Source: Paramecium tetraurelia
Taxonomy: Eukaryota
DNA length: 64,000 nucleotides
NCBI GenBank assembly: GCA_000165425.1
Contig: CT868047.1
Span: 1-64,000, forward strand
Direction of reading: 5' to 3'
Translations under genes and position numbers: made by a program
Part shown: positions 2,500 through 23,740 of the stretch, piece by piece
Layout of the letters: each line of letters opens with the position of its first letter
Numbering within the stretch: position 1 is the first letter of the stretch
Notes under the pieces: model-generated
What the model was told of the DNA's origin: nothing
Seen by the model: only the letters and a program-made list of their open reading frames with translations
Databases searched by the model: none

Positions 2500-4072
2500 T
2501 CATTTTAATGCTGAAACAAGTAATACTTCTGCATCCCTAAATCTTTAGTTCATCGAAGAACAATTTAAAACAACAATTATCGCTTCTAGATTCTCATTTT
2601 TATAATATCCTGTGAAGCATGGCCCTGCATTAGGAGTCACACCTGTCTTTACGCCCATCCAGCCTGACTTTTTAAGTAGTTTGTTTGTATTTTTCCATTT
2701 GTAAAATGTTGACTTGCTCCCTTTATCAGTTAAGGCATGAGTCTTAAATATTTTTGTTGTTATGATTTCTAGGAATACTTCCAATTATATGCATTTTTCA
2801 ATTAATTTACTAAATATGATGGAACTACTCATACCTTATATCATGAGGACAGGATACATTCTTTTCATCATTCAAACCATGAACTGATGAGTAATTTGTG
2901 TTTTCCATTTTAATTGAATTTGCGTGTTTATTCATTTGATCGAGGAATGTATGTTTAAGTAACTTCTTGTTTCTTTCAATTTGTGGTTCTATGTCGATAA
3001 TCGCACCTTTCAAATACCTATTATATTAATAAATCTCTGTTTTTTGCAATATCATCAAATATGCTATAGTGAAACCCAATACAAGTGCGGCATCATTTCC
3101 AGAAGGTAACATAAGAGCGAATAGCAATTGCTTAATTGTTAATATGCCTCCTGCATTTAAAAAGGCACTAGTACCATCAATGCATTCAGCATGGCCTGGG
3201 ATTTTGATTTTGATTTATTCAGGCTCAATGTTGCATTCTTTTAAGTATGTTAATGTAGTATAACAGGTCATTATTTTTGTGATACTGGCTACTTCCCCTT
3301 TTTAAAATTCTTGCCAGCCAACTTATTTATTAAAAAATTTTTCATTCTTCTATTTCGTGAACATGACCCATCTTTTAGCGCTGACTTTATTTTTAATAGC
3401 AGGAATAGCTTAATGAACTGATAATGATACGGTAAGTTTGTTTGGAAAAATCTTTTAGGTCATTAGACTTGTTGCAGTTTTGATAACATTTTTGGGTTAC
3501 CTCTATGCTAATTGAGATTCTGCTAATATATCAGTTTTAAGAATTACTAGATTAAGGTTCTTTTTGTTAACTTTATGCGTAAACCCTCATTCTTTCTCTT
3601 ATCAATTAAGCTGGCAGATTGGGCAAAGTAGGTTAAGGATTTATTGAAATTTATTGTTCTGAAAATTCCTCAGACTATATGGTTTGTCCATTGGCGTATT
3701 TGTTCTTCTTCTCTTCTTAAGCAATCATATGTAAAGCATCTAAGTAAGTGTCCACAAATACATACTCAGATTAGTTTTCATATCTTCTCTATATCCATAA
3801 ATAAAACTAAATTATACATTAGCTTTTTTTATAGGATCATTGAGTATACACTATGCGTCATGTACATAAAATTTTAAAACATGTGGAGATCTTTTCGGGG
3901 ATGCTTTAATTTTTGCACTCTGCAATCCTCTAACCTTTAACTCTGGAAGCGGAGTATTAGGAACATCGCTAAGTTAGTTTGATCCGCTTGTGTTTGCCAT
4001 TTGAGAATGAACACTTTTTCGATGAAATTTCGATAAGGAAACAGAGAATGCATCTTTAGGGTTAGCATTCAT
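2500..4072 (-). CDS. Serine-type D-alanyl-D-alanine carboxypeptidase (peptidase S11, PBP5/DacA-like) with long N-terminal extension, ~515 aa
   Basis: All three PBP motifs are present: SxxK (GEVASITKIMT ~3270-3295), SxN (LMLPSGNDAA ~3088-3115), KTG (GVKTGVTPNAGPCF ~2625-2655), plus SVHGL. One 25-nt intron (~2810-2834). Confidence 0.9.
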
Positions 4073-4387
4073 ATTACAATATTAAAATATTATATAATAA
4101 AAATAAAAAATTATTTTAAGAGAAAGATTTTTCGCTTTATGAAATGATTTTAATGATTCTACATTTATAAACTTATCATTTAAAAGTTCTGTCATTAAAG
4201 ATTTTAATATCAAGAAATTATTATTATTACTATTACCTAAATATGGCTTGCATGGTGTTAAAAATTATCGTTGTTAATACAAATTCAATAACTAGCTTTT
4301 TATTCAAGGCAATAATCATTCAAATTATCTTTTGATTCAGTAATATAATACTATAAATTATATTTATTAATTCAAATAACAAAAATA

Positions 4388-5772
4388 ATGCTTTCTGATA
4401 TAGAATAAACTTAAAATAGCTGCTAAGTTTGTAAGAAATAAGACGTAGAATTATCAAGATGCTCTTCTTGCAAATAAATTTATTATTGCTCAATAGAATG
4501 TCAAAAAAAAGATTGGAAAGAACACAAATTTATTTGTTCTGAAATACAATTGAAATAACAGAGAGAAAAATAAAGAGCAGAAAGAAAAGCATAGGGAAAG
4601 AAAGCTATTGAAGATTTCGCAGATTTCGAAGTTTTGGGTCATGGAAATTTTTCAGATATCTATAAAGTTCGAGAAATTGAAACCAATTAAGTCTATGCAT
4701 TAAAATAGATAAATAAACGAAAGCTAACCTAAGTTAACAAGGAAAAAGATGTTTATATGGAAAAACATTGTTTAGGCAAGCTTACAGATAATCCGTATTG
4801 TATTAGGTTATATTCAACATTTCAGGATGACGAAAATCTGTACATGCTTATGCAGTATGTTGATGGTGGAGAATTATGGTAACAAATTCACAATTTTGGA
4901 GCCAGGGCTTTTCCACTTTGTCTATACTATATTAGTGAAATAATTAAAGGTAATTGTTAATTTGACAAAAGCAATAAATTCTATCCATAATATTGGTATT
5001 GTTCATAGAGACATAAAGAGTGAAAACATACTATTAACGTAAGATAAAAAAATAAAGTTTATTGATTTTGGAACTGCAAGAGACATGAATGATCCAACCA
5101 TTGAAGGAAGTGGAAATGGTAGAAAAGGTAAGAAATTTGAATTAATTATAAAGGAAAGCAGGCTTTTAAACATTTTGTGGGAACTCCTTAGTTTATGGCA
5201 CCTGAATGCATAAGGAATAAAGACTCGAATGAAAAATCAGATATTTATTCATTAGGTGTGTTATTTTATCATATTGTTTTTGGTAAGTATCCCTTTGATG
5301 GGAAAAGTGATTATTTGGTGTTTTAATAAGCATTGGAAACGGAACTTCAGTTCCCAGAAGGTTGGATAGACAACGAATAATTTAGAAGTCTTATTCGAAA
5401 GATGTTGTAAAAGGATTCTTAGGATAGACCAACTCTGGCTGAAATAATGCAGGATTAATTGTGGGGTGAGAATTTCGATTGGAATGCAGAGTAAGGTACA
5501 GTTATGATCTTTAGTTAGACTATTAGACTGTTTTAAATGGGTTGAAGGAGATTGATAAGTTTACTTTTGATTTTGCTTTGGAGTTGAACAATGCTGAGAA
5601 ATTGGAGGAGAAGATTTGCGTCAAGTATGAGATTAATAAGGTTTTGGGGAAGTACGAGAAACTGATAAAGGATGAAGATTATTAGAAACGATTCAATTAC
5701 ATGAAATAGATTGTAGAGTAGAATTTGTAAAATAGAAAAGATGAAGATGAGGAGCCGTAATAATTTAGATGA
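4388..5772 (+). CDS. MYND zinc finger fused to an AGC (PDK1-like) Ser/Thr protein kinase, ~437 aa
   Basis: N-terminus CQVCKKQDVELSRCSSCKQIYYCSIECQKKDWKEHKFIC (MYND consensus); kinase motifs LGHGNFSDIY, YALK, HRDIKSEN, IDFGTA, FVGTPQFMAPE; three short introns. Confidence 0.88.
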
Positions 5773-5802: not shown

Positions 5803-6646
5803 TCACTATATTCTAAATTGTTTTCTTTGATTTGAAATGGATTTGACTTTCAAATCGATTTATTAAGCTTCCTATCTAATTTAGACATAATTTCGAACAA
5901 GCTTTTCATTTTATAGATATAATTATTCCAACAATTGTAATTATTAGTCTGTGTTCCCTAATTGATAGAATTTGTGTCTCTAAACTCTGCTATTTTCGAT
6001 GATGGAAAATAATGATTATCGAAGACTATTTAATTCTTGATTTTCGCTTCTCTGATAGGTTTCGTTATTTTGAGCCTTAAACTTAGAATATCTGTTTTGA
6101 TATTGTTCAAGGTTAGATTGAAGTTTATCAACAATTTCGACCTTAATTTAATTTTAAGGGAGATTAGTACGCAATTTGATTTGTTTAGGCAAGTTCTCTT
6201 CTTCCTCAAATTATGTGGAGACAATTAATGAATTTTTGGAAACCATATTGGAGATAGATCGAGTTCGCTTATACTCAATTTACAAATACTTTTGAAGTTA
6301 ACTTGGTTTGCGGTTCCAATTTATTTTAACTTAAAGAACTTTTGCGTCTGTTTTCGGTATTGAATCTGTGATGTTTTTATTTTACGCTATTATTCGATAA
6401 CTTTTTGATTAACTCTGTTGTTTATTAATTTAGTGATGCCACATTTTTGGGAGAGTTTTTTTGATTTCTGGCACTAGGAGACCTCGATTGTTTAATTGAA
6501 GGTAATTTGAGGTGTTTGTAAATTTGGGGAGATATCAAATGATTCGATTGCAACGGAGAGATATTTGTTCGTGTATTTCTGACTTCAACTGAACGATCTA
6601 TAGATATTCGAATTCTGTTATTGTTTGAATCTTATCTCCTTTGCAT
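5803..6646 (-). CDS. Hypothetical basic, low-complexity protein
   Basis: ATG at 6646 opens MQRRQDSNNNRIRISIDRSVEVRNTRTNISPLQ... in code 6; TGA at 5803; no recognisable domain; internal exon structure not fully resolved. Confidence 0.6.
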
Positions 6647-6771
6647 TAAATATTTATTAATAAAAAATATACATTTTCCGTCAATCACTGACCAGTGATA
6701 CCTGGTGATCTCTATAAACAATATTTAGAGTCATTTGAGATTGAATGAATTAAACAAATTATTTTAATAAA

Positions 6772-9700
6772 ATGAGTCACTCTCTTAAAGAAGCTAATTA
6801 CAGTGTTAATTAAGTCGAATGTGAAATCCTATAAGAATATTTAGGATAGCCCAAGGCTTAGTCATTAATGTATCATTTCCTAATCAATCTTCTTCTAGAT
6901 AGTAATTTGCCAAGTCTTCTGAATTTAACATATTGGTCACACCTTCAGGATTAGTGGTATAATGTTGTGGGAACACAAATATCATCAAGAAATTTGGTAC
7001 TCTTCAAATGTCTAAGGGTACACATATTTGGGAAGTTATAGCAATATATGATTGTAGTTAGATGCAAGTAATCATTGATAATCATTCAAGATTGGAGTGA
7101 GTACTGTTAGTAAGCCAGGACAGGAGAAAGTTTACGTTTAGTCGTTCACAGCAAGCACAATAAGAACGATCACAGTTATTCTAAACATTGAATTGGGAGA
7201 AGTTAATTTTTATTTGAATGGAAATCATAATTAAAAAAAAACACTGCCTGTTGAAAAGAATGCCATTTACGTCCCTCTAGTATAATTTGCACCACACGGG
7301 AAAGTTGCAGCTCTGAACCCTTTTGCTTAGCATCCAAATCTTAATTATCCAAGAATTAAATGTTTGCCACTTAATTTATTTACCAAAACAAATGAGTTTA
7401 AGATGCCAAATTAGGTTTTTACAGGCAATCTCTCTAATATCGAACTAAAAGAGTTCAAACCCAACTAAATGATCAAGATTTCAAACAACTTTATCTACTT
7501 CCACAATAACAAAATGAAATTGCTGAGACCCAAATTAGGATAATCAAATATTCAAGAAACATAATTGGTTAACTTATTTAACAACAAACCTGAGACTCCA
7601 CAGTCTTTGATTTCTATTAGATTAATGAAATAGCATTACGAATTAATTTCAACAGCGTTCACCTGGAAGAAATCATTAACCAATGGATTTACAAACCAAA
7701 ATATGATAGAATAGTTCCATTACTATTGGTTATAAGCAAAACAGTTTGAATCGCAAGTGCTAATTTAAATACCATACATTTTGATGAAATAAATAGTTCT
7801 ATCTCAATTGGAGGAATATGAATAAGACTTTGGACTTATCCTAAAGTAAGATGAATAGGTGGAGAGCTGCAAAGTTCTAAAGATAGTTCGAGTATTATTA
7901 GAAATAGATGAATAATTATATGCCATGACATTAAACAACTAGGAATTTGAAAAGTTCAATTCTACTACTTCATTTAATTTGGTGCCAAGGATATTCTCCT
8001 AATTTCATAGATTACACACCTTCCTGGATTCCAATAATTATCCCTATGATATCATATCACTAACAGAACTAGGATTAATGAAGCTCCCTGGTTTCTCAAA
8101 TCTATTTAGACACTTTACCAACTACAGACATCAAATTGAACCAATAACATATCAGAATGATCTATCTAGTATTTTGCCAGCTGAAAAGATCTACAGTTAC
8201 ATTGATATTCCATTAGCTTTGACAATCAATAATATTCCATATGTAGATTTGGAGCCCAACTTGCAAATGGTAAAATCAGTCAACGATTCAATTTATTTCT
8301 CACTTATAAATGAAGAAGGAAGGATACAAGTATGGAATGGAGAATTAAGTTTACACAGATGCTTATAATTTAATCTCAGATCATTTGAAGAGAAAGTTGA
8401 AGATTAGAATTCATTGGCTCCATTGTTTGCTGAACCATAATCAGAGAATAATCCTTCATCAAATATTGAAAATCAAGATAGTCAAAGTGAGGAAGCTTAA
8501 GAAGCTATTGTTCCAAATGAAGATTTATTAGAATAACTTTACAATATGGGTTTTTCAATAGAGGCTTCAAAGCAAGCATTGATAGAAACCAAAAACAAGA
8601 TCGAGGAGGCCATTGAAAAAGTATTCACAATTGAGGAGCAAAAAGCTAAAGAGAAATAACAATCACAATAATAAGAAGTTAAATTACCTAAATTAAAACC
8701 TTATTGGACTTGCAAGGAATGTACACTACTTAATTCAAATGAAAATCTTAAGTGCTAAGCATGTGATGCCTAACCTCCCTAAGATGCATTTGAAAAGGAA
8801 ACCGCCATTGTAATCTAGGAACAGCAATTAGAATAGCAAACAGAAATTACAGAGGAAAAGATTTAAAAGATACAAGAGGATAATAATGAAAAACTTCGAA
8901 ATATTTTCAAAACCTCGAAATTATCAAATCTTATTTAAATCAGTCTATAAAAACCATTTAGACATTTACTATTTGCCCATGTGTTTACCACAGAATAATA
9001 ATCGTATTTAGTTCTTAACCGATTCTTCCAGAGTATCAAATACTTAGGTTAATTTTTTAGAACAAATAATGAGGGAAACTATTCTATACTAACGAATAAG
9101 TCATATTCATAAATAGGCAATTATTAGAACTTGTTAAAATTACTAAATGAAGGAGAGAATAGTAGATTCATATATGAAACCTTATACCCAGTTTTAACTG
9201 TAATTATGATGTTATATATTGTTAGCAATCGCAAGAAGAATTTGAATTTAAAGATCAAATCATTTTAGCAATAGATGAAACCATATCAAACCTATTTTTC
9301 CAAGACGACATGATTGTTATTTAAGGAGCCACAAAGATTTGGGAATGTGCCTTATTTGAAGGTAAATTATACAATTATCATATAAGGTGAAAACTATCAA
9401 CCAAAATTGGCAGTTGCCTAAAAGTAAGAAAAGGCAGTTATTACAAATCAATTGGAAGAGGCCATAGAAAAGGAATAGGCTGTTATTTAATAAAATGAAG
9501 TGGTTGAATCTTTTGATGATTTGACAAAATTAACACCAGAGGAGATCTCTGATTTGGCTAAATTGAATGAACATCAAGATGTCTACTTCCAACCTATTAG
9601 CAATAACCCCATGCTCTTATCATAATAGAAGGGGGATTCTTGGGCCAATATCATTGTAGACGTTGACCAATCCAGTTAGAATTAGATTGAGTTAAATTTG

Positions 9701-12700
9701 GTCAATTAATAACAAATGATGAAGCTATTTGTGACAGGATTCAGTGACAAAAAGTCTCAGTTTAAATCTGAAGGATGGGTGTCTATTGATGGATTGAAAC
9801 CTGAGAAAGATGATCAATTGCCCCTTACTATCTTTACCCACAAGGGATCTCAATTTAATGTTCAATAGTGCATATCCAAAATATGCTTTGTTTAATAAGA
9901 AATATTCTCCACTGTTTATTCAAAGCCAGAATTTATCTTCAAGCATCTACATGGGAAATTGATGAGTTTTTCTAAGTTCTAAGTTGCAAGTCCAAATAAA
10001 TTTTAAAATACAGGAGTGCCTCTAGGATCTGGTTTGATATTTATTGGAAACAACGCCAATGACTTTTTGTATTGTTAGAAGTTTTCGAATTTCAACAAGG
10101 AAAAATATCAAGAATGGTTAAAGGAAAGGCAAAAGGATATTAGACCTTTGAAGCCTTGGGAACCAGTGGCCTTTTTTGAATTGGGGGCAAATGAAGAGTA
10201 ATTGACATTTTCCTTAGAGAATCCAAAGATTGGAAAATATGTGTTATTAATGACATTATCAGCAAAATAGACAGATCAAGTGAAGTTTGAGTAAAATCCT
10301 TTGACTTTGAATTATTTCGTTGCTTATGGTACTGTGGTGAAGGAAAATATGGGAGATTAATTAGTGTAAAGCCAACAATCCCTTGAGCTATTTAGAGACA
10401 TTACATTAAAAGTAAATGGTGCTGTTTTGGATAAGGATTAATGTTAATTCAGAGAGGACACTTATGGTAATTACAATAAATATATCTGTGAAATACCGGC
10501 ATCTTTATTAGCTAATGTTCAAAACATCAAAATCGAATTCCAAAAATCAGACATTAGTTTTCTCCAAATCAGTGGGCTCAAACAAAAAGATATCAACTAG
10601 AAACTTTTACAAAAACTTCCTTAGGCTCATCTGATTACGACTCTTATGCACGATGTAACTAAATATGATGAATTTAATTAAAAGTTAATGCAACTAATAC
10701 ATAACAATAAAGCAACTCAATAATAGAGATTTAGTGCAATAAAGGTGTTGTGCAAGTTGTTCTAAAGTATTCCTTAGTTTGTAACCATATGCTATAAAGA
10801 TTTGGATATTTTAGAGTTCATCAAGTTAAACTTACTTGCATAGTAATAGGAGGAAGAATCCAGTGTCTAAACTTTCTTTTAATTATTCTTATCAATCCCT
10901 GAGTTCAATGGTCAATTAGTCAAGGCAGTAAAAGACATCATAAACAATATCTTTACATTATCTGATATTATAAAACCAGCAGGATTCATCCAATTACTTC
11001 AGATGTTGAAGAAGTATGCTTCTTAGGACTCGAAAGAATATTATCCTTACATTTTAAGTCATTTAAAGCAAATTGCAAAGTTCATTCACAAGGTTGATTC
11101 ATCCTACTTCAATAAGTTGAATCAATTTTAGATTTTCTTAATGTTGACTGAAGAATAATTGTTTTCTGATAGATATTGTAAATTAACCTAATTTGCCGAA
11201 GACACTCCATTGATTTCTCAAGTGTTAGGAGAAGTATAAAAACAGATTGAAATCAGTAACAAAGAAAAGGTAGACCCTGAGAAACCTAACAACATGATCA
11301 ATATCGACATTAATATCAAGAAACCTCTATATTCAATCATTGTGTTCTCAAGATAACCTCATTATGACGAATATGTAATTGATCTGCTATCCTAATTCGA
11401 TGTCCATCAATTCTAATTAGTGTTTAATACTCCTTAGATAAGTTGTAGAGTAGTTAGGGTGACTTTGTTTAATGGTTAGACTAATTAGCCCATTTTGGAT
11501 GTCACTCTACCAGATTGGCTCCTAGTTTAATTAACAAAATATGCTGATTAGCATTCTGCAAATATGCCAAAGAGCAAACTGAATATTATGTCATGGAATA
11601 TAAAGGCTTAACAAGTGAGAACATTGAAATTATAAATAACATATTCATTAACTGCAGCTACTAGAACAAAGGAGGAGAGTAACATAGCTCCAAAGGAATT
11701 GTGCATCATTCCTTAATTCAAGGGATAATTGAGTTAAAATTTAGAGAAGTTTGGCCAAGACAAGGATCAGATTTAGAGTCAAGTGTTGTTTACAGATGGA
11801 GATTTTGTATTCGAGAAGGAGCTAGGTTTTCCCAATTCTTTGAAATACTAGAAATACAATAATCAAGGGTCTATTTACTTGGATTCAGCGCAGGTTTTGG
11901 GACTCAAACAAAAATACGTGATATTAAAAATAAAGGAATCAAATAATTTAAATGGTCCTCATACATAAATACAGTCATAATATTATAGAGCCCTACTTGT
12001 TTAAAAGCAGAAGGAATTAAAGTAAAAGTTGCAGCAAAACCAAGGCAAAGAAAAGATCCAAGACACCATTTAAATCATTAGGAAATTGTAACTTGAATTG
12101 ATCCAAGATCCAAATTCAAATATCAATCTTAGTAAATCCCTAGATTTCTTGTATACATATGCATACGAACTAATAAAGATATTAATTCATGCAGATTCTA
12201 CTTGTCAATAATGGAGATCAGACGTGGCTTTAAGAGAACAAGAAGGATTGAAGATGGCCTAATTAATTTACAAGACCTTTGTGTAGATGAATCAAGGACC
12301 AATCACAGATCTTAGTTTTTAATTGCTTAATATAATCTTAAGCAACTTGAATCTTAAGTATTGGATTCTATTTACATTTGCTCAATATCAGAAAATTGAC
12401 TAAGATGCCAACATTCTAAATACCTTGAAAATACTTCACATCCCAATATGTTAAACTATAATGTACATTTCAATAATTCTGAGCGAAAAGCAACAGATCA
12501 AACAAGCCCAATAGTTAATAGGGTTGGTGTTAACTAAGTTGGTGGACAAGCAATTCAACAACAAGGAGTTGGTGGATCCTCAAATGCAAATTAAACCATT
12601 GGGAACTCTGAGATCAACAAGTAGTTAAGATTTAGAGATAGGATAGGTGGAGAAATTAACCGATGAATGTTTCGAATTAACAAAACCAAAAGTATTCTCA

Positions 12701-15700
12701 ACTCTATTTTGCATAATGAAATGGACATTACAAAATTAACAGCAATATCAAATCTAAGATGTACAAAACCTATTTCTTAAGACTTGCAATGTGTTGATGA
12801 AACTAAACAACGATGAACTAATTCAATTTGTGACTGAGATCACTAATCCCACAGATCCAACACAATCGGGATTGTTCTAACTATTAGCCAATGCATTATA
12901 ATCGAGTGATTCCAACACAATTCTGAATCAAATCAAACAAGTTATCGAAAAGTTATGCACTCCCCAAACATACAAATTAATATTTTATTTCTTCTAAATT
13001 GTATTGAATGCCATCGTTAAGCATGCTAATGAGAATCTTTCAATATTCCCACAGCCATTGGATAGTTCAGCTTGGTTCTAGTTTTTGTCCTTTGTTGTGG
13101 GACAACTATTGCTGCTTTCGAACATGAATCTTACACAAGGAGAGCAGAGATAAAACCAAAGGAAGAGGTCAATTAAATATCAGGCTGCTTAAACCTTTTA
13201 GGAGTTCTCAGAGAAATTTGAAGAAGGGGGATTTATTTAGATATGCAACATTGAAACACTGTCACAGATGATAAGATTCTTGATTGAGCCAAGAAAGAAT
13301 TTGGTCAACAATGAGACTTTGGAGAATTCATTGACTTATTGGGGTTTGTTGTTGAATTTGATGAGCAAAATTCCAACCTAATTGATTATGGAACACAAGA
13401 TATACGATTAATTATTGTCGATTTACTTGAGATTGGATGCCAACAAATAGGCTGTGATATAATTTAGATTTATTGAAATGACCAAGTCTATTTTAGAGCA
13501 CACTTAAAGTACAGAATTCAATAGCAATCTAATTAAACAAATCTTCTAATATTAGGGCACCACTCTCATAGATGGATTACTCAACATTGTAGCATCTTAG
13601 GAAAGGAAAATCAATGCATCCATATTTAAATTGATATTCTCAGAGACTGCTCAGTACTTATACAAGTATTGTAATGTTGGCAGACACGATGGAGTTTATA
13701 GTTGTGAGTTGTCCTTGCTTAAAAAATTATAATTTGGAAACAAATTGCTGTAATTAATGAAAAAGGCAGAGTGTCCCATTAAGGTATAGATGCTCATATA
13801 GGAGATACCTTAATACGGAGAAATCATCAACAAATACATCCACTGGTACATGCTCAACAAGTCAAATGTGCCTAATGTTACTCCTGCCACTGAGATCTTG
13901 GGAAGCATCAGTAAACAAGTGCGATAAATCTTTGATTGGCTATAGGCAGATTAACAATTGTCAACGGAATCCCTGATTCAACTGTTTAAATTCTAGAAAG
14001 AGTTTGATGTAGTTGTTTAGGAACAGATGAATCAAATGACAAATATTCTGAGTTATTCATTAATAAAACACACCCAAGAGATCTTTGAAGAGTTGAATGA
14101 ATTGTGGATGACCACTGATTAAGTTGTTAGGGAAATAGCTATAAATGGAAATGGCTTTGAATATTTGCTTGAAAAAACCCATTTGACTTCTTCGACCTTT
14201 GAGGAGAAGACTGAAGCAAGTGAGTAGCAACCACAAGAAGAGGAGTTTGCAAATAAATTGGCTATGATTGATCCTCAGAAACCCCAAGGACAATAGTAAC
14301 CATAGGTGAAGGATTGGCAAGTGAACAAAAAAGGAGTCAAGGCCAAAGTTCACGTTTTAACTCTCAAAGACGAATTGTCTGAGGATTACATACTTGAATT
14401 CTAATTGGAAAAGGCGATTGAATTGAAATAGATCAAAATTGGGTTTTAAGCATACACTCCAGAATATAATGATAGGATTCTGGGTGTTCCAGACATAGTG
14501 GTTGTTGAAGTAAAGAATAAGACTTCAGATAATCTGTGGTATCCAATTGGCATCATGACTTTAATTGAAGATGAAGCATACACCTATTATAGTGTGAAGG
14601 TGATGGCCTTGAATGTTTGGAGATTATCTGCTTAGGGTAATTTAAATCAACAAATTAAGTCATTGGGTCAATAACCAATATCATACATCAGATTCATTAT
14701 GAAAAAGCCTTAGATCACATTTTTGGAGTAGATCTCACAATTATCTTTCAAATAATACAATAACATCCAAATTGGAGTGAGTTTCATTTCCATCACAGGA
14801 TTCGATTCCACAATCAATAGGAACAAGTAAATTTAGACAATTTAGGAGAAGACTGCAAGTAGATTGTTGGGTAAGATGTGTTCTTAGAAATTCAGAAATA
14901 CTTTGTTTGATATCAGCAATAATCAGAATATTGTGTAATAAATAAAGAAGAGCTTTAAGAATATCAGTTAGGCATTGCATTCAAATGAGTCTACATTGTC
15001 GCCACTCTTTATTGGATTGACAAAGTATAATCCAGAGTTTGGAGATTGGGTATTGGAATAAATAATGGACATCACTTTGGAATGGGCACATGCGAAATTA
15101 ACAGCTGAAATAGTGTTGTAGGACAAGGATAAACAATTGGATAGATTAAAGAAATTCTTGAATTACATTTTAAATCAAATCAAATAAATCGCTTAAATTG
15201 CCAAATCATAGGATCAATTCACTCAACTCACCCTTTTGATTGAAGCCTTAACTTATGCGATACTCATCTCAAGCAAGTAAAAGAACAAGGACCCAATATT
15301 GTTAGAAGTGGAAGAGGAGGACTTCTTGAATATTCTGTAGGCAGTAGAAGTCACTAGTCAATCCTATGAGCATTGCAACATGATAATCAGGTTGTTCATC
15401 ACTCTTATTAAATTGCCTCAGCCATATGTTTTGAATATGCAATTGCAATAGACTGGCATCATTGACATGACACAATAGTTGTTGCAAAAACAGTCACTAT
15501 ATAAACTCAAATTGTTGTCCATCTTAGTACAAATTAGCAATGAAGTAGTGAGTCTCATTAAGCCTTACTTACCCAAAATCTTTGAGCAAACAATTGAATC
15601 ATTGAAGAAGACAGACAACACAACATTGTCTGATTACTTTTTCTTCTTTGACTCCTCAGCCAATGTTCTTGAACTCAAAAACTTCTATTGTGAGAATGAT

Positions 15701-18700
15701 TATCATTTACAAGTTTATGAGAACTTGAAAGTGTCCAATCCATCCAAAACCTTATTAAAATAAATTGATTAATTGACATTGGGTCATATTGTGAACTTCA
15801 TTGGCAAGATAACATTGTCAAATCCATAAGCGATTGGGCAATTGGCTTAAAAGTTGATTCAGGATATCAATCTATTGTCGCAAATCGTAGATATCAATTA
15901 TGTAGAAAATGTGCTTATACCTTTATTGAATTTCGAGGAGAAGATCGATTTCACAATTGACATTTGGGACAAGGAAAGTCAGATATTTGTTGGAGACATC
16001 AGAAAACTGAGTTCTCTTCACGTTCAAGAGGATGAAACTAATGAAGCCAGTGGATCTCACGAATTGAATGGATTCCAGGCCAAAGAATTCACTCCCCAAT
16101 ATTACGATGCTTTGCAATCAGCTATTTAGAAGGTTATCAAGACTAATTCACTCAAGAAAGGAGGAAGATGGGTTAAAGAGATGGAGTTATCATAGGGAGG
16201 TTCATACTTCCATAAGACATTGTCTACTTTGCAAAAGGGACCATTTTTGATTTTGCTATTCGGAAAGAATAACAATCAGAACGAAAATTGTATTATTGGA
16301 TTGTTCAGTACTTAGAAATGTGGAAATTTGGTTAGTGAATTTTAACATGACTATTACCCAGGAGAAGTGTATCCAATTCCAGAGAATGGAGAGCAATTTG
16401 GATTCACTTACGAAAAGGATAAGATCTATCATTTGTTGAATAATGATCGCAAAACATTTGGAGTTGGAATGGATCATGTCAATGGTGGTTCATTCTCATT
16501 TTTATTAGAAAGAATCAATTTGACATTCTCTGATGACCAGGAAGTTTCAAGCATTTCAATTGGAATTCACGACTTTGAATTATTGGAATAAAAGCCAGAA
16601 GAAGATTACTATTTTGATGATTTCTGGATGCAAAGAATGGAAATTTGGATTTACCAACAACCACAGTAGGTGTCTAAAAGCACTTAGAAACCATTGTTCA
16701 GTGGACAACAAGGCAATTAGTTGATTGAAACCAATGACACTTCTACTTTCGGCTATGGAATTCTAAGCAATCCAATTCTGTAGGATAAATACTTTGCCAA
16801 ACAATCCGTCTATAACTACTTGAGTGCTACACCAGTATATTCCATTCCAGGTAATTGCAATAACACTAACATTCTGTAATGCATTTACGTTTCCAACATG
16901 TTCTTGAATGAATAGGCAATCAAGAACTCTACCATTATTTAAATGAATGGCACTCTGATCCAATAACAAACCAAACCATTCCCAACATTTACAGTTGATG
17001 GATTAGAATTGTTAGGACAATTAAATTCCCTTACTGAAACTCCATTGTAGTATTCCTCATCGTTGAAAATATTTGAAGCCTTCTAGAATCAGGATGGAGT
17101 CAAACAAATTATCTTGGCAGTTTAGGATGCTACTAAAAAGTGGTAGAATCAAGAATTGACTTAAATCTGGAATTCTTATGTATCTGAATTGAGTGCCTTT
17201 TGTTCAGTACCACAATTCTTCAGTTACTTTTTGAAAAATAAGAAATCAATGGAGTTACTATTCTAATTACTGGCAGGAACTCCCGATCAACCTAATAGCG
17301 ATTAAAAGGCTTGGAAAGAAAAAGAGATCGATGCAGTGAAGTTCATCTATGACACCTTATCAGATGTTTTCAAGACACACAACAATCAAGAAATTCGAAT
17401 TATTGCCATCAAGGACAATTTAATATAGAAGATATTGGATAAAATTGCTATTGTCAGTAAGGAAAAGAAAAGAGTGTATCAAGCTGTTATTGCTGAGGAG
17501 CCATAACAACCACCATAATAGTAATAGCCTTAAGCACAGGGGGATAAGTCAGTTGATAGGAAACCAAAGAAGAAGCAAGGTGTTGGTTATGGAAGTGATT
17601 AGACTGGACAGAACTAAAAGTGGAATACTCAGGAATATTTAGATAAAAAGAAGGTTCGATCAGAATAATTAAAGTCTCTTTTGGAGATCATTAGAAACTT
17701 TTTCAATTATGATAATTGGCATTTAAATTAAGAATTATCATAGATAATAAATGAAATGATATTTGAAAGTGCATTGTTATCCTTATTAGAGGCTGCATTT
17801 AGATCAGGTTCATTGTTAGAAATGTCAAAAGACTTTGATCTCAATTTATGTTATCTTCAATTAACAAAAACATTAGCCAAACATAAGAACCTCACTCCAT
17901 TATTATTAAAAATACCTCCTAATTATATACCGAAACAAATCGAATCTATAGCATAATTATTAAGCAATCTTAAGAACATTGCTCACATATTCTTATCTTG
18001 TCTACAAACCAACGAGTTATCCGAGAAGGATTAGATCTCAAAACAGATTGCTACCATTATTCTTGAGACAGATACAAGTGTCCAAGAAGCTATAGAAAGA
18101 TTCTAATGTGATGAGTCAGAGAATGAATAAGAAGACGCAAAAGAACATGAATTGCAAGAGATACTGAAATTGCCATTGAATGAAGCCTACAGATTGTTGT
18201 TAAAGGACTTGAGATTCGACTATGTGTCATTCAAAGGGTAAAACCAGCAATATCTCCACTATTATGAGAAACAAATTACTCAGGCTCCTACTCCAACACC
18301 AGCAAAATTGATTCGTCTAGCCTAGGAATTCGCTGATATGTCCAATTCTCTACCTGTTGAACACACTAATTCCATATTTGTTAGAGCTGATAAGGATAGA
18401 GTGGATGTAATAAAAGCATTGATTATGGGTGCATCTGGAACCCCGTATGCTCACGGAGCTTATTTGTTTGATATCTACTTTGAAGACTAATACCCCAATA
18501 CTCCTCCCAAGATGAATCTATCTACTACTGGAAGTGGGAAGATCAGGTTTAATCCAAATTTGTATGCCTGTGGTAAGGTGTGTCTCTCACTATTGGGAAC
18601 ATGGAGAGGACATGCATCTGAGAATTGGGATCCCAAGTTGTCAACCATCTTGTAAGTGTTGGTGTCCACCTAAGCAATTATCATGTCTGAGGATGTGTAC

Positions 18701-21700
18701 TTCAATGAACCAGGGTTTGAAGGGGAAGCAGGCTAATAGGATGGCGAAATGAAGAATGAGGCCTATTCCAACATTGTTAGATACGGAAACATCCAATATG
18801 CTATGATTGAGAATATCAAGAATCCTCCCACTGGATTTGAGACTATTATAAGAAGACACTTCTATTTGAAGAAAGGAGAAATAATGGAGGAAGTCAGGAA
18901 ATGGGTTCAGTATGCTGAGCAAAGACAAGCCTTGTATATGGGATTGGTGAGCGATCACAATAGTCAATGGTGTTCAGTGTTCAAGAAGTCTAAGACTCAG
19001 TATTTGGATATGCTCAAGGATGCAACTGCTGAACTTGAAAAGGCTCTCAATAGTTTGTAATAGCCAAGCATCAAGGAGATCAGTCCAAAGTTGAATCAAA
19101 GAAGAAAGAAGAAGCAATAGGAGAATTAAGTAATTGTTCAAAAGGCCACTGATGGCATACTTAATTTAGAAGGAGTTGATGTGACCTATGATAGTAATGC
19201 TATTCAAGAGCAAGTGATAGATGTGAGTAATGAATAAGTGAGAGATAGATGGAGCAGATACATCGGAGCAATGGGAATTGAAGCTGTTAGGAAGTAAGCA
19301 AATGCAAAAGTCTTACTCTGCGGAGTGGGATCCTTGGGTGTTGAGATTGCTAAAAACGTGGTGCTTTCTGGAGTTGGAGTTTTCGCTATCTATGATAACA
19401 AAGTGGTGAATCAGGATGACTTGGTAGGGTAGTTCTTCCTTTCTTAGTCAGATGTTGGCAAACCGAGGGCTGCAGCTTGTGTTGATAAAATTCAGCAGTT
19501 AAATAATTATGTTAGAGTCAAAGTGATAGAGAAGGATGTGCAATAGTATATAACCACAGAGCAATTCGATATCGCAATATTGACAGATGTCTATGATTAC
19601 AACGAACTAGTTTGTTGGGATAATCTGTGCAGAGCCCATTCAATTAAGCTTATCATCGCCAATGCCAATTCTGTTTATGGAAGAATCATTAATGACTTTG
19701 GAGCTGAATTCAAAGTAATCGATAAGAATGGAGAAGACATTCCTGATGTATTGATTAAATCGATCTAAGCAGATGGAGTAGTTGAATTATTGGATGGTCA
19801 GAGATCTCAATTTGCAGATGGAGATTCAATTATATTACTGGAAGTCCAAGGCATGAAGGCAGGAGAACAATCAATCAACAATCAGCTTCTCAAGATCCAA
19901 ACTATTTCTACTAAGAAATTCAAGATTATCGATGACATCTCTCAATATTCTCCTTACCTTTCGAGTGGAATTGCCAGACATGTCAAACAAACTATTACAT
20001 GTACTAATAAATCCTTGGATGTTGTAATCAACAGTGATGATTGCTTAGATGCCAATTTGAAGGAGAGTGATAGCATCAAGCTTGTAGAACAGAGTCTAAT
20101 GCATTTAGCTTATAGAACACTATCATACACCAACGGAGATATTGTCAATCTCCTCGACTCTGTGATTAAATTTGATAAGGCCAATTTCATCCAGTAGAAT
20201 TCCAAACTAGCTAAGTATTTAGAATTCTATCTCAAAATGTTCCAAAAGACCTTTGCATTGCCAGCATTCCCTCCTTTAGCTGCCTACTTAGGAGGATTTG
20301 TGTCATAAGAGATAATCAAAGCACTCACTAATAAGTTTACTCCCATCAATCAAGCCTATTATTTTGATTGCATCGAAGTGTTGCCATTTGAAATCTGGGA
20401 TGAAAAAGGAGATTAATAGGCTTAGATCCAAGCAGTTGATCAACTTTAATTGACTGGAAAAGATGCATTGACTAAATTATTAGGGGAGGATGTGTATCAG
20501 AAGGTGAGAAGTACCAATTTATTCATGGTTGGATGTGGTGCTATAGGGTGTGAATTGCTAAAGAATTTTGCCATGATCAATTTAAGTATTGACGGGTAAA
20601 TTACTATAACTGATCCTGATCACATTGAAACTTCCAATCTAAATAGGTAATTCCTATTTAGAGAGAAACACATTCACAAACCTAAGTCTTAGACTGCAGC
20701 TGCAGCAGCAATTCAAATCAATCCACTACTGAAGGGCAAATTGATTGCAAGAATGGACAAGGTTCACGAACAAACCGAGAATATTTTCCATGATCAATTC
20801 TTCGAGTAATTATCCCTTGTTGCCAATGCTCTTGATAATGTCCAAGCAAGAAGATATGTCGATCGCAGATGTGTCAAGGCCAAGATTCCATTGTTAGAAT
20901 CAGGCACTCTGGGTCCCAAAGGCCATGTGTAGTGTATCATCCCATTCCAAACAGAATCATACAACAGCATGCAGGATCCAGTTGAGGAAGGAGAAATTCC
21001 TTACTGCACTTTAAAGATGTTCCCTGAGGAAACATTCCATTGCATTGAGTTTGCCAGAGACAAGTTTAATAAGCTATTCTCCTTAAAACCAAAATTGGCC
21101 TAGAACATCATAGAAAATCAATCATTCAATCCATCAAATCCAGAAGAGATCAAATAATTGAAATCTACTATCAAATTACTCCAATAGGCACCAACCAAAC
21201 TTGAAGATTGTATTCAATGGGCAAAAAATAAGTTCTCAAAGTACTTCATCAATGACATTAAATAACTACTGTACACATATCCAGTTGATGCCAAAACTAA
21301 GGATGGACAACCATTCTGGAAATTACCCAAGAGACCTCCAAGATGCTTGAATTACGACATTGAAAATCTCATCGTTGTCTAATTTATATCCACAATGGCT
21401 TTCCTTAGAGCCAAACAATACAATCTGCCCACACCTGCCGACTGGAGACATGAGAAGAACAGACGAGATGTAGCCACCTTAGGAGAGAAGATGACAAGCA
21501 AGGAGTGGATACCCAATGATTCTAAGAAGAAGGAGATCGAGGAGCAAGTGTTGAAGTTGGAGAACAAAGCCCAGAAGCAACAAGAGGAGGAATAGGAAAA
21601 TGCCATTTTTGATGACCCCAACAAGTTATTGGCACAACTGTAGGGTTTGAAATAAGCAGGGTATTTGAATATATATATTATTTTTAGAATCAAATTGTTC

Positions 21701-22327
21701 TCGTAAGAATTCGAGAAGGATTGCGACATGAATGGACACATCGACTTCATTCACTCTCTAGGAAACCTAAGAGCTTTGAATTACGGACTCGATGAAATGG
21801 ATTGGATCACAGTTAAATTGAAGGCCGGAAGAATAGTCCCAGCCTTGGCCACCACCACAGCTGTAGTATCAGGACTCTAGACGATTGAATTAGTCAAAAT
21901 CTTAAAGAGGTGCAAACTTGAGAACATGAAGAATGGATTCATCAATTTAGCTGTGCCCATGGTACAATTGACTGAGCCGATGAAGGCGGAATCCATCAAA
22001 CTTAACGAGGAAGTGAATGTCACCTTATGGGACAGATGGGATGTCAAGTTGGGAAAAGAAATTACCTTGCAGATTTTGTTCTAGCACTTGAAACAAACAT
22101 ATCATTTGGAACCGGCTAATGTTTTCAAGCAATCTTCAGTCGTTTATATGCATGACCTTCATAAGGGTTCAGCCATATTCACCTAGCCTATTATCGAATT
22201 GCTGGATGTCAAGGTACGCTATTAGTATTATGATTAGAATGATTATGTGGATTTAGTAATTAATTTTGTTAAAGACGAGCAGATCCTTAAGAATGTCCCA
22301 GAAGTTAGAGTCTACTTTAACGAATGA
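6772..22327 (+). CDS. Giant (~5,130 aa) ubiquitin-system protein: SPRY - UBA - NZF/RanBP2 zinc finger - BIRC6-like body - BIRC6/BRUCE-type E2 (UBC) - complete E1 ubiquitin-activating enzyme (UBA6/UBA1 family)
   Basis: Six introns (6870-6898, 7068-7090, 9200-9225, 9362-9386, 21661-21687, 22214-22237) restore one frame. ORF-track fragments at 8078, 15479, 15854, 16367, 17756, 18749, 19580, 19790 and 21395 all share that frame. [23 protein letters not shown] (Cys 18581-18583). E1: [54 protein letters not shown] (Cys 21005-21007), [27 protein letters not shown]-terminal UFD. Not every codon of the 12-kb exon was checked. Confidence 0.92.
6960..7325 (+). other. SPRY-like domain at N-terminus of the giant protein
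   Basis: Spliced translation [22 protein letters not shown]...[20 protein letters not shown]...IYVPLVQF follows the SPRY pattern (G-x-H-Y/I-W-E-V, IGV, I-G/T-V-x-L-D/N, FY-x-NG, Y-P). Confidence 0.6.
8515..8775 (+). other. Tandem ubiquitin-binding modules: UBA domain and NZF/RanBP2-type zinc finger
   Basis: [33 protein letters not shown] (UBA MGF motif), then [22 protein letters not shown] (W-x-C-x2-C-T-x2-N-x6-C-x2-C). Confidence 0.85.
18300..18840 (+). other. BIRC6/BRUCE-family UBC (E2) domain within the giant gene
   Basis: [56 protein letters not shown]...[36 protein letters not shown]...STILQVLVSTQAIIM...[11 protein letters not shown] replaces HPN, as in the BIRC6/UBE2O/UBE2Z group. Confidence 0.93.
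19240..22324 (+). other. Full-length E1 ubiquitin-activating enzyme module (IAD-FCCH-AAD-SCCH-UFD) within the giant gene
   Basis: Inactive adenylation domain ([22 protein letters not shown]), active adenylation domain GxGxxG at ~20531, catalytic PYCTLK, and UFD ([10 protein letters not shown]...VPEVRVYF). Confidence 0.95.
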
Positions 22328-22433
22328 TATCTATTATATGTATAAATTATAAAATTCATCTATGCATTTTCTAACTTATATAATATGTTACAATCCTACG
22401 TTTATTAGCATAGAAATATATAATTAAAATTTA

Positions 22434-23740
22434 ATGGGTAATTGCTGCGGATAATCCTCAATCATGGAGTGTCACTAGCAATAAATTGTCACCAAGGATC
22501 TCTTAGGTGAAGAGTATGCAAACAAGGCTGCATTAACGATTCAATGTAAGTCACCCTTTTTATCGCTCAAGCCTATGTTCGAGGATATTTGATTAGGAAA
22601 AAGCATAGAAATCACAAAAATAATAGTGTGGCCATCACAGCGACCAATGAATATAGTTACTCAAACAAACAAAGCAGATAAGAAATTTAGTTGGTCGATT
22701 TAAAAGGGCTCAACTCTATCTCCAAAGAAACTAACATACCTCAAAATCTCAAAACTATCGAAAAGGTACCAGAAACGCTTGACAATTAAACAAAATCAGT
22801 ACATTTATTCTTTAAATTTGATTCCCTTTTTTAGTTGAGGCAAGGCCTACCCAAATTTATTTATGAGGAGTCCCAATTAGAACCAGGCTTGATAACAAGA
22901 GGACCCGTGCAGGATGAACTTGATCATATATATATAGGTTAATGGAAGGATAAGTATAACCCTTGGCTATTTTAGTGCAAAATGGGGTCGAGGAATCTAA
23001 TATTGGTCGGATGGCTCCTACTATGAGGGATACTGGAGGGATAATAAATAAAATGGAAAGGGAAGACTCATCCATGTGGAAGGAGACGTTTACGAAGGCG
23101 ATTGGTTAGATGACAAAGCCCACGGCCAAGTAAATATATTCCACAAACCATTATAGGGGAAATTGACCACTTCCAACGGAGGATATTATGTTGGCGGCTG
23201 GATTAACGACAAATAAAATGGTTAAGGCAAGGAACTATGGCCAGATGGAGCAAGTTTTGAAGGACATTATGTTGACGGCATGAAATTTGGTTAAGGCATA
23301 TACACTGTTGCCAATGGTTCTCAATATGTGGGAGAGTTTGCAGATAATTGCTTCTGTGGTTTTGGAACTTACAAATGTTCGGATGGAACTAAATACATAG
23401 GGTATTGGAAGTAAAATAAAATGAATGGATAAGGAGTAAAATATTTAAACTACTTTTAGGAGTTTCATTGGAATGATGGTTCAAAATATATTGGAGAATT
23501 CCTAAACGATTTAAGAGATGGATTTGGCACATTTTATTATGGCGATGGAAGAGTATTTGTTTGTTAATAGCATATTAGATTTATAAAGGGTAATGGAAAA
23601 TTGGAAAAAGACATGGCAATGGAACTTATATTGGGAGAAACAAAGTGGAAAAATAAGGCAAATGGTAGAATGGAATTTTTGTAGTCTGGGAAAAATAATT
23701 TACAAACTCCTCCGTTGGTGACGATGCTCTATTTCATTGA
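22434..23740 (+). CDS. MORN-repeat protein with N-terminal acylation motif and IQ motif
   Basis: Starts MGNCCG (myristoylation/palmitoylation-type), IQ-like [15 protein letters not shown], then many Y-x-G-x-W-x3-K-x-x-G-x-G repeats (e.g. [27 protein letters not shown]); several short introns. Confidence 0.88.

Follow-up and report, generated by a model that had tools for sequence, protein, structure and literature searches.

A 64,000-nucleotide stretch of the Paramecium tetraurelia genome (contig CT868047.1, positions 1 to 64,000; hereafter, the window) carries, on the plus strand at 6772..22327, a gene for a giant protein of 5,133 amino acids that joins a ubiquitin-conjugating module (UBC, E2) and scaffold of the BIRC6/BRUCE type to a complete ubiquitin-activating enzyme (E1). 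The region addressed here, 6772-8800, encodes the N-terminal head of this protein, in which an original prediction made from the sequence alone recognized a SPRY-like domain, a UBA domain and an NZF-type zinc finger instead of a BIR domain. Judging by the colinear profile matches and the scores of separately aligned regions described below, the head consists of a SPRY domain, a BIRC6-type N-terminal module whose BIR position holds an insert without a zinc site, the UBA domain and the NZF-type finger, in this order. We put the probability that this is the head of a BIRC6/BRUCE-family giant with a fused E1 that works along the lines proposed here at roughly 0.7, with the binding and catalytic steps the conditional part of this estimate.

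The window is AT-rich (G+C content of 25-38%), and under the ciliate code (code 6, with TAA and TAG read as Gln), its plus strand contains open reading frames (ORFs) of 744 and 4,337 codons. Translation with table 11 gives only 4 ORFs of at least 100 amino acids within 5000-30000, none of them long, and was rejected because it yields no gene. The gene consists of seven exons (6772-6869, 6899-7067, 7091-9199, 9226-9361, 9387-21660, 21688-22213 and 22238-22327, the last one including the single terminal stop) separated by six introns of 23-29 nucleotides. Introns 1 (6870..6898, 29 nucleotides, GTA..TAG), 2 (7068-7090, 23 nucleotides, GTA..AAG, interrupting the SPRY domain), 3 (9200-9225, 26 nucleotides, GTA..TAG) and 4 (9362-9386, 25 nucleotides, GTA..AAG) connect the start codon at 6772 with the long ORF in one frame, and the sole in-frame TGA (9311) leaves the frame once introns 3 and 4 are removed. 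Introns 5 (21661-21687, 27 nucleotides) and 6 (22214-22237, 24 nucleotides), which emerged from the comparison with full-length orthologues, are in-frame and free of TGA, so that a plain ORF reading puts 17 false residues into the E1. Two of the six introns (7068-7090 and 9362-9386) end in AAG rather than TAG; at both junctions, the reading is consistent with the protein models of the orthologues. There is also an in-frame ATG at 6745, nine codons upstream of 6772 with no intervening stop, which is a possible alternative start.

In the database, the long ORF is closest to a Paramecium octaurelia protein of 5,132 amino acids (P0003; 98% identity, 100% coverage), followed by the Paramecium sonneborni protein P0004 (90%), which identifies the window as DNA of macronuclear type from the aurelia group of Paramecium; throughout residues 1-1000, there is no indel at any exon junction relative to these two annotated proteins. 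Altogether, the annotations of two orthologues and three paralogues each give one protein, of 4,620-5,132 amino acids, with the same head. Three stranded oligo-dT RNA runs labelled with the same species were mapped over 6300-22700 in 30 bins, and reads whose first mate maps to the minus strand, the orientation that denotes plus-strand RNA in most stranded libraries, were present in all 30. The depth is 0.2-1.6 over 6847-9581 and rises steadily to 46-69 at 21616-22162, with no local 3' peak ahead of 9313; loose read ends at 21660 and 21687 back intron 5. Run X1 is DNA-like, its pieces spanning the introns without gaps. As far as can be told from the colinearity with the orthologues and the RNA depth, the 5' region is part of the giant gene, as the original prediction presupposed.

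The block of the protein homologous to the C-terminal third of BIRC6 spans 14066..19078 (amino acids 2398-4068) and was aligned by hhalign, in a comparison of 23 ciliate with 15 BIRC6 proteins, over 1,418 columns (residues 2398-4068 of P0003 with 3065-4811 of BIRC6; probability 100%, E-value 1.6e-84); BLASTP alone aligns 725 residues with BIRC6 (8e-73). This block includes the UBC core (18314-18739; Pfam UQ_con, 69.5 bits) with the BIRC6-type motif FNPNLY...GKVCLS, of which the catalytic-Cys part, GKVCLSLL, lies at 18572-18595. Directly behind the UBC core, the C-terminal ~1,050 residues (19241..22324) comprise two ThiF folds (248.7 bits), the catalytic SCCH (219.8 bits) and FCCH (58.5 bits) domains and the UFD (27.2 bits), with the motif GCGAIGCE at 20531-20554 and the catalytic-Cys motif at 20996-21025. 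By all criteria tested on the sequence, this is a complete canonical E1 of the UBA1/UBA6 type, and the whole-length scores against yeast Uba1 (564 bits), human UBA6 (561 bits) and human UBA1 (532 bits) do not appear to assign it to either the UBA6 or the UBA1 type. The E2-plus-E1 context on which the original prediction was built is thus borne out by both the Pfam domains and the whole-length E1 match. The UBC module and the scaffold place the protein, by homology, in the BIRC6/BRUCE family, of which it apparently lacks two hallmarks, the zinc-binding BIR (see below) and the BIRC6 domain PF12356; in the piece of 4,337 residues, no match to the latter reaches E<=0.1, and it is missing from the precomputed Pfam lists of all 72 ciliate relatives. 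Within the E1 region, the reads from two of the three RNA runs deviate at 20071 (T>A) and 20073 (G>C), in 3 of 23-30 reads each; these may come from another allele or a paralogue.

The SPRY domain occupies 6906..7333 (amino acids ~36-170), with the GTHIWEV motif at 7017-7037. It is split by introns 1 and 2, and because of this interruption, the tests were run on the P. octaurelia orthologue P0003, in which 4 of the 190 N-terminal residues differ from those of the window. A profile of 15 ciliate N-termini, compared with the PDB, retrieves the SPRY domains of TRIM9 (5.7e-13), TRIM67 (1e-11) and RNF135 (1.4e-6). The AlphaFold model built from the same 15-sequence alignment (predicted local distance difference test score, pLDDT, 78.3; predicted template modelling score 0.73) has ten strands between residues 44 and 165, and Foldseek finds only SPRY/B30.2 structures among the matches listed, with 365 at E<=0.001 and TRIM9 as the best one (E-value 4.9e-9; template modelling scores 0.58/0.63). 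Profile and model both point to a genuine SPRY fold, in agreement with the original prediction.

The stretch between the SPRY and UBA domains, in which nothing had been recognized originally, resembles the N-terminal module of BIRC6. The segment at 7472..7930 (amino acids 217-369) is homologous to BIRC6 residues 85-228, which precede the BIR (hhalign probability 75.8%, E-value 2.3e-5, score 39.0, compared with 10.1±1.3 and a maximum of 12.7 for 40 column shuffles, and 9.5 for the reversed template). It is followed, at 7979..8377 (amino acids 386-518), by a region aligned to the BIR and the segment after it, so that amino acids 217-518 as a whole are colinear with BIRC6 residues 85-401. Weaker hhalign matches retain the same order, namely, P0003 residues 354-525 with BIRC6 213-401, the portion that contains the BIR, 1255-1433 with 1297-1490, and 1496-1595 with 1770-1853; there is no hhalign signal between amino acids 650-1260 and BIRC6 395-1300 (probability 0.1%). 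With sub-alignments of the BIR-like region re-aligned, the match to BIRC6 reaches a probability of 92.9% (E-value 3.6e-7, score 46.7, compared with 11.4±2.0 and a maximum of 16.3 for 60 column shuffles, and 10.2 for the reversed template). A ciliate-only profile of the BIR-like stretch is found in 31 of the 72 family proteins and matches BIRC6 at residues ~229-368, with E-values down to 1.2e-9 in a set of 48 BIRC6 proteins; a single-sequence search of the PDB with the BIR-like region of the window gave nothing (best E-value 0.39). When this region is split, the segment behind the BIR (BIRC6 ...NVPLSVTLATSPA...KRGKICVWDV...) matches the second half of the aligned region with a probability of 95.5% and a score of 45.7 (null 10.7±2.1), a firm homology.

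A zinc-binding BIR was not detected. The C-x2-C-x16-H-x6-C zinc site has no regular-expression match in the protein encoded in the window, nor does Pfam report a BIR there at E<=0.1; relaxed C2HC spacing occurs in 10 of the 72 family proteins, in none of them inside the N-terminal BIR-like region, and zinc ligands are found at the BIR position in no family protein. The BIRC6 stretch with the C-x2-C knuckle falls opposite a gap in the ciliate alignment, and the H and C ligands are absent. The original remark that no BIR C-x2-C...H...C motif is present is therefore accurate. 'Instead of a BIR domain', on the other hand, calls for qualification: the SPRY is an addition at the N-terminus rather than a simple replacement, with the position of the BIR itself kept colinear with BIRC6.

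Behind this module, the UBA domain (8510..8623, amino acids ~563-600, with the MGF loop at 8546-8554) and a RanBP2/NZF-type C4 finger (8705..8764, amino acids 628-647) follow each other at a distance of ~30 residues. The UBA domain scores 34.2 bits with Pfam UBA_7 (cut-off 27) and 20.0 bits with the older UBA model (cut-off 22.4) in the protein of the window. In the structural model of the UBA-finger module, it is a three-helix bundle (pLDDT 92-94; helices at residues 12-21, 25-34 and 39-60), and its nearest solved structures are the UBA domains of TDRD3, USP5 and USP13; the residues L, G, F and A are invariant, and M nearly so, in all 18 aligned UBA-finger modules, which are only 22-36% identical overall among non-orthologues. 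The Pfam score, the modelled bundle and the MGF loop together support the original UBA assignment. The finger was found with the pattern W.C..C...N.{4,10}C..C, which has a single match in the six-frame translation of the window and none in 50 shuffles, in line with the NZF-type finger originally proposed. Its model is a ribbon with two short strands (pLDDT ~90) that superposes on TRABID NZF1 with 1.0 Å over 26 residues, the residues W, C, C, T, N, C and C are invariant in 18 of the 18 modules, and the Pfam Zn_ribbon_RanBP (zf-RanBP) family gives 28.2 and 26.6 bits in the paralogues P0007 and P0010, respectively. The family UBA-finger profile matches the NZFs of TAB2, NPL4, HOIP, TRABID and HOIL-1L with E-values of 2e-6 to 7e-6, as well as the fingers of RanBP2 and Nup153.

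This architecture belongs to a family. The UBC-E1 fusion is common to 72 relatives (P0003-P0074), collected as proteins that list both UQ_con and ThiF, with members in Paramecium, Tetrahymena, Ichthyophthirius, Pseudocohnilembus and Moneuplotes; several of these are clearly incomplete (2,400-2,900 amino acids). The SPRY profile is detected in 31, the UBA profile in 43 and the finger pattern in 32 of the 72, and the 14 proteins that have all three, including Tetrahymena P0008 and proteins from metagenomes, always have them in the order SPRY-UBA-finger. This order recurs across several ciliate classes in giant UBC-E1 fusions. An index-free search with exon 3 yielded 53 further representatives at E<=0.001, of 51-3,702 amino acids, and those that are long enough show the order SPRY, BIR-like region, UBA, finger. 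All eight of the shorter relatives that were looked up sit on metagenome contigs of 4.2-23 kb, so that these may be fragments and are no proof of stand-alone forms. Word-indexed searches with the same exon detected no stand-alone relatives of 386-1231 or 1232-3515 amino acids, a weak negative, since 53 shorter or fragmentary relatives did turn up when the search was index-free. The accessory domains vary among the ciliate UBC-E1 giants: a ZZ zinc finger (PF00569) is present in P0013-P0017, P0020, P0022, P0072 and P0073, and CCCH fingers in P0028, P0036 and P0037, in each case replacing the UBA-NZF pair or beside it.

From the domain identities, their order and conservation, the single-gene structure, the transcription and the catalytic motifs described above, we infer a mode of action, every binding and catalytic step of which is conditional. 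The fused E1 would activate ubiquitin with ATP and pass it to the neighbouring Cys of the BIRC6-type UBC, either in cis or across a dimer, a step modelled on the charging of BIRC6 by UBA6 in animals. The UBC would then transfer ubiquitin directly onto clients held by the head. Within the head, SPRY is the likeliest receptor for a protein or peptide and might perform the client binding that belongs to the BIR in animals. The UBA and NZF would let the head bind ubiquitin and thereby keep a growing chain, or clients that are already ubiquitylated, near the active site; the ubiquitin they hold could be on a primed client (E4-like), could be the chain acceptor or could be free ubiquitin destined for the E1, and the present data fit each of these options. 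The architecture suggests, but does not prove, that a self-charging enzyme recognizes ubiquitin-marked targets. The E4-like reading of ubiquitin marks that was originally proposed is plausible in the sense that the head could work like such an enzyme, which implies no membership in the Ufd2-type E4 class; no U-box is reported by Pfam in the protein of the window.

Several observations weigh against this interpretation. The Pfam SPRY family (PF00622) gives only 18.6 bits (E-value 0.0021) for residues 1-300 of P0003, below the gathering cut-off of 26.3, and 17.2 and 15.5 bits for two paralogues, so that the domain, although clearly identified by profile and fold, falls short of the Pfam threshold. 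Similarity to BIRC6 in the first half of the BIR is weak (probability 16%, score 19.2, compared with 9.4±1.9 and a maximum of 13.3 for the null), with BIRC6 SEANRRETF...MAQAGFYHQ aligned to SQFHRLHTF...LTELGLMKL; therefore, a 'BIR remnant' is not proven, although the same weak similarity makes us lean towards a loss of the zinc site in ciliates over a gain of the BIR in that loop in animals. The splicing of introns 1-4 is seen in no read of the three RNA runs because the 5' depth is too low (<=1.7), and these introns are called from the logic of the frame and the orthologue models. With respect to the finger, Zn_ribbon_RanBP scores 20.4 bits in the protein of the window (cut-off 27), and Foldseek reports no match at E<=0.001 for the model of the UBA-finger module, these domains being too small for anything but a ranking, in which ubiquitin-binding and Ran-binding fingers were not separable.

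A further point, which bears on ubiquitin binding, is the sequence of the finger. The NZF signature of ubiquitin binding, reportedly defined by Alam et al. in 2004, consists of T-F after the second Cys and Met between the last two Cys. Among the 32 fingers of the family, T-F/Y...M occurs in 17, T-F/Y combined with I, V or N in 7 and T-L...A in 6, and there is one T-I...L and one G-I...I. The Paramecium finger keeps the Thr but has L for F and A for M, and this T-L...A variant is found in all five Paramecium proteins (P0003, P0004, P0007, P0009 and P0010) and in P0038. In the printed alignments, YAF2 reads CTFRN...CMMC, and the Nup153/RanBP2 fingers read CLLQN...CIAC, CLVQN...CVAC and CCVQN...CVAC; one Nup153 finger thus has both the L and the A of the Paramecium finger, whose A is also present in the remaining Nup153/RanBP2 fingers aligned, and such Nup153 and RanBP2 fingers appear in complexes with Ran-GDP in the Foldseek list. 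Conversely, T-L...A is preserved among Paramecium paralogues that are just 34-36% identical in the UBA-finger module, which argues for selection maintaining a working surface of some kind. Taken together, the finger of the window protein is a RanBP2-type C4 ribbon that departs from the full NZF signature, the finger of the family as a whole can be estimated to be an NZF proper, and ubiquitin binding by the Paramecium finger is uncertain given T-L...A in place of T-F/Y...M: it probably binds ubiquitin weakly or not at all, the latter being a possibility to be taken seriously even if the odds are against it.

This last possibility, that the Paramecium finger is a structural zinc ribbon or a module for another partner and that the UBA is the sole ubiquitin receptor, is the alternative we would give the most room. 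The uniform T-L...A of the five Paramecium proteins and P0038, compared with T-F/Y in 24 and T-F/Y...M in 17 of the 32 family fingers, and the resemblance to the Nup153 fingers CLLQN...CIAC and CLVQN...CVAC rather than to CTFRN...CMMC of YAF2, which is of the ubiquitin-binding type, speak in its favour, whereas the invariant Thr, the hydrophobic character retained by Leu and the persistence of T-L...A between diverged paralogues run counter to it. Somewhat more doubtful is a role of the UBA and NZF in the cycle of the enzyme itself, be it retention of free ubiquitin near the E1, placement of the acceptor for a particular chain type or a brake that acts through self-attached ubiquitin. In favour of such a role, the UBA-NZF pair resides in a protein with its own E1 and E2 and is conserved as a fixed module with the two domains 25-60 residues apart, and in E2s that carry a UBA, such as UBE2K/Ubc1, this domain takes part in building chains; yet the pair lies ~3,250 residues from the UBC Cys in the sequence, and the data at hand distinguish nothing between such a role and the reading of substrates.

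As to the SPRY domain, it might serve to brace the giant scaffold rather than to receive substrates, considering that no partner is known and that its profile is found in only 31 of the 72 family proteins, though many of the others are N-terminally incomplete. We regard this as rather unlikely: judging by the titles of their entries, the closest solved relatives (TRIM9, TRIM67, SPSB2, DDX1, Ash2L and GID subunits) function as binding modules, and the domain is located at a free N-terminus. Finally, 6772-9313 could be read as a separate gene, for a SPRY-UBA-NZF protein of ~830 amino acids that ends at the TGA at 9311. The unspliced reading indeed ends at 9311-9313, the removal of introns 3 and 4 is seen in no read, and shorter relatives of the 5' region (51-3,702 amino acids) exist. 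However, canonical GTA..AG introns of 26 and 25 nucleotides restore one frame, with conserved protein encoded in the exon between them, the annotations of both orthologues and of the three paralogues keep the head within one giant protein, the RNA depth has no 3' peak before 9313, and the eight shorter relatives on metagenome contigs are possibly fragments, which makes a separate gene highly improbable. The identification of the region as the head of a presumably self-charging BIRC6-like giant is, accordingly, the reading followed here.

Comparison with known systems sets this giant apart from each of them in some respect. With BIRC6 (BRUCE, Apollon), it shares ~1,650 homologous C-terminal residues that include the UBC core with FNPNLY..GKVCLS, the colinear N-terminal module (amino acids 217-518 and BIRC6 85-401) and a middle segment (probability 60%); unlike BIRC6, the ciliate protein has neither a zinc-binding BIR nor PF12356, and adds the SPRY, UBA, NZF and fused E1. 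Conversely, the SPRY profile is found in none of 48 BIRC6 proteins, and UBA or zf-RanBP in none of their 48 precomputed Pfam lists. UBA6 and UBA1 have the full E1 domain set that the ciliate protein matches over its whole length, but in the ciliate case the E1 is covalently fused behind an E2. The finger resembles the NZFs of NPL4, TAB2/3, TRABID, HOIP and HOIL-1L in the C4 ribbon, the W, the N and the Thr after the second Cys, and differs from these in Paramecium by T-L...A for T-F...M. HOIP (NZF and UBA) and UBE2K/Ubc1 (UBC and UBA) are ubiquitin-building enzymes with ubiquitin-binding modules of their own, and the HOIP NZF and UBE2K turn up among the structure and profile matches of the UBA-finger module; in contrast to the ciliate protein, catalysis in these enzymes is by an RBR or a small E2, and neither has a SPRY, an E1 or a giant scaffold. 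The SPRY/B30.2 receptors (TRIM9/67, SPSB2 and the GID complex) are similar in fold and profile, but the identity is 13-19%, and Pfam detected neither a RING nor a B-box or SOCS box in the ciliate pieces scanned. The bacterial Cap2 protein of CBASS also has an E1 and an E2 in a single polypeptide (PMC12355090), but it is small and prokaryotic, acts on cGAS-like enzymes, contains the opposite kind of E1 and has no SPRY/UBA/NZF head.

The gene is already predicted in public databases, as an 'unnamed protein product' or 'UBA domain-containing protein' with the UBA, UBC and E1 listed; the public domain lists include neither the SPRY nor the homology at the BIR position and, for this orthologue group, not the finger either. 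No literature was found on a ciliate BIRC6-like protein or an E2-E1 fusion, although older comparative papers of Burroughs, Iyer and Aravind may mention the architecture. Human BIRC6 is charged specifically by UBA6, and why only UBA6 charges it is a question of recent structural work (PMC13623948, PMC12999496). One recent BIRC6-UBA6 paper speaks of BIRC6 as conserved in metazoans, and in the recent papers examined, neither a natural BIRC6-E1 fusion nor ciliates are mentioned, the word 'fusion' occurring only in titles of unrelated references. Elsewhere in the window, the neighbours are ordinary ciliate genes, for kinases as well as for a protein with MORN repeats and proteins of the EF-hand, WD40 and chromodomain types, and there is no ubiquitin gene among the 29 other long ORFs. 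The ORF at 2801-3586 on the minus strand matches Peptidase_S11 (D-alanyl-D-alanine carboxypeptidase; E-value 1.3e-17), a bacterial-type enzyme, and may have been acquired from bacteria.

Taken alone, the domain observation is well founded but of modest reach; what makes the case interesting is the machine as a whole, together with the exchange of receptors around the old BIR position. A natural family that combines a BIRC6-like scaffold with an E1 would offer a compact system for the hand-over from E1 to E2 and the selection of clients within one chain. The head, in which a receptor (SPRY) and two modules of the ubiquitin-binding kind are grouped about a decayed BIR position, makes the swapping of receptors in a giant ligase concrete and open to test. 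In the fullest scenario, which is speculative and which we consider unlikely as a whole, ciliates fused the BIRC6-UBA6 partnership into an enzyme for which ATP and ubiquitin suffice, the zinc site of the BIR was lost, client binding passed to the SPRY, and the UBA-NZF pair inserted behind the old BIR position lets the enzyme read and extend ubiquitin marks. If this is the case, a giant scaffold of the BIRC6 type that bears an insert where the BIR lies would be older than the split between alveolates and animals, and the ciliate family would argue that this scaffold long predates apoptosis in animals.

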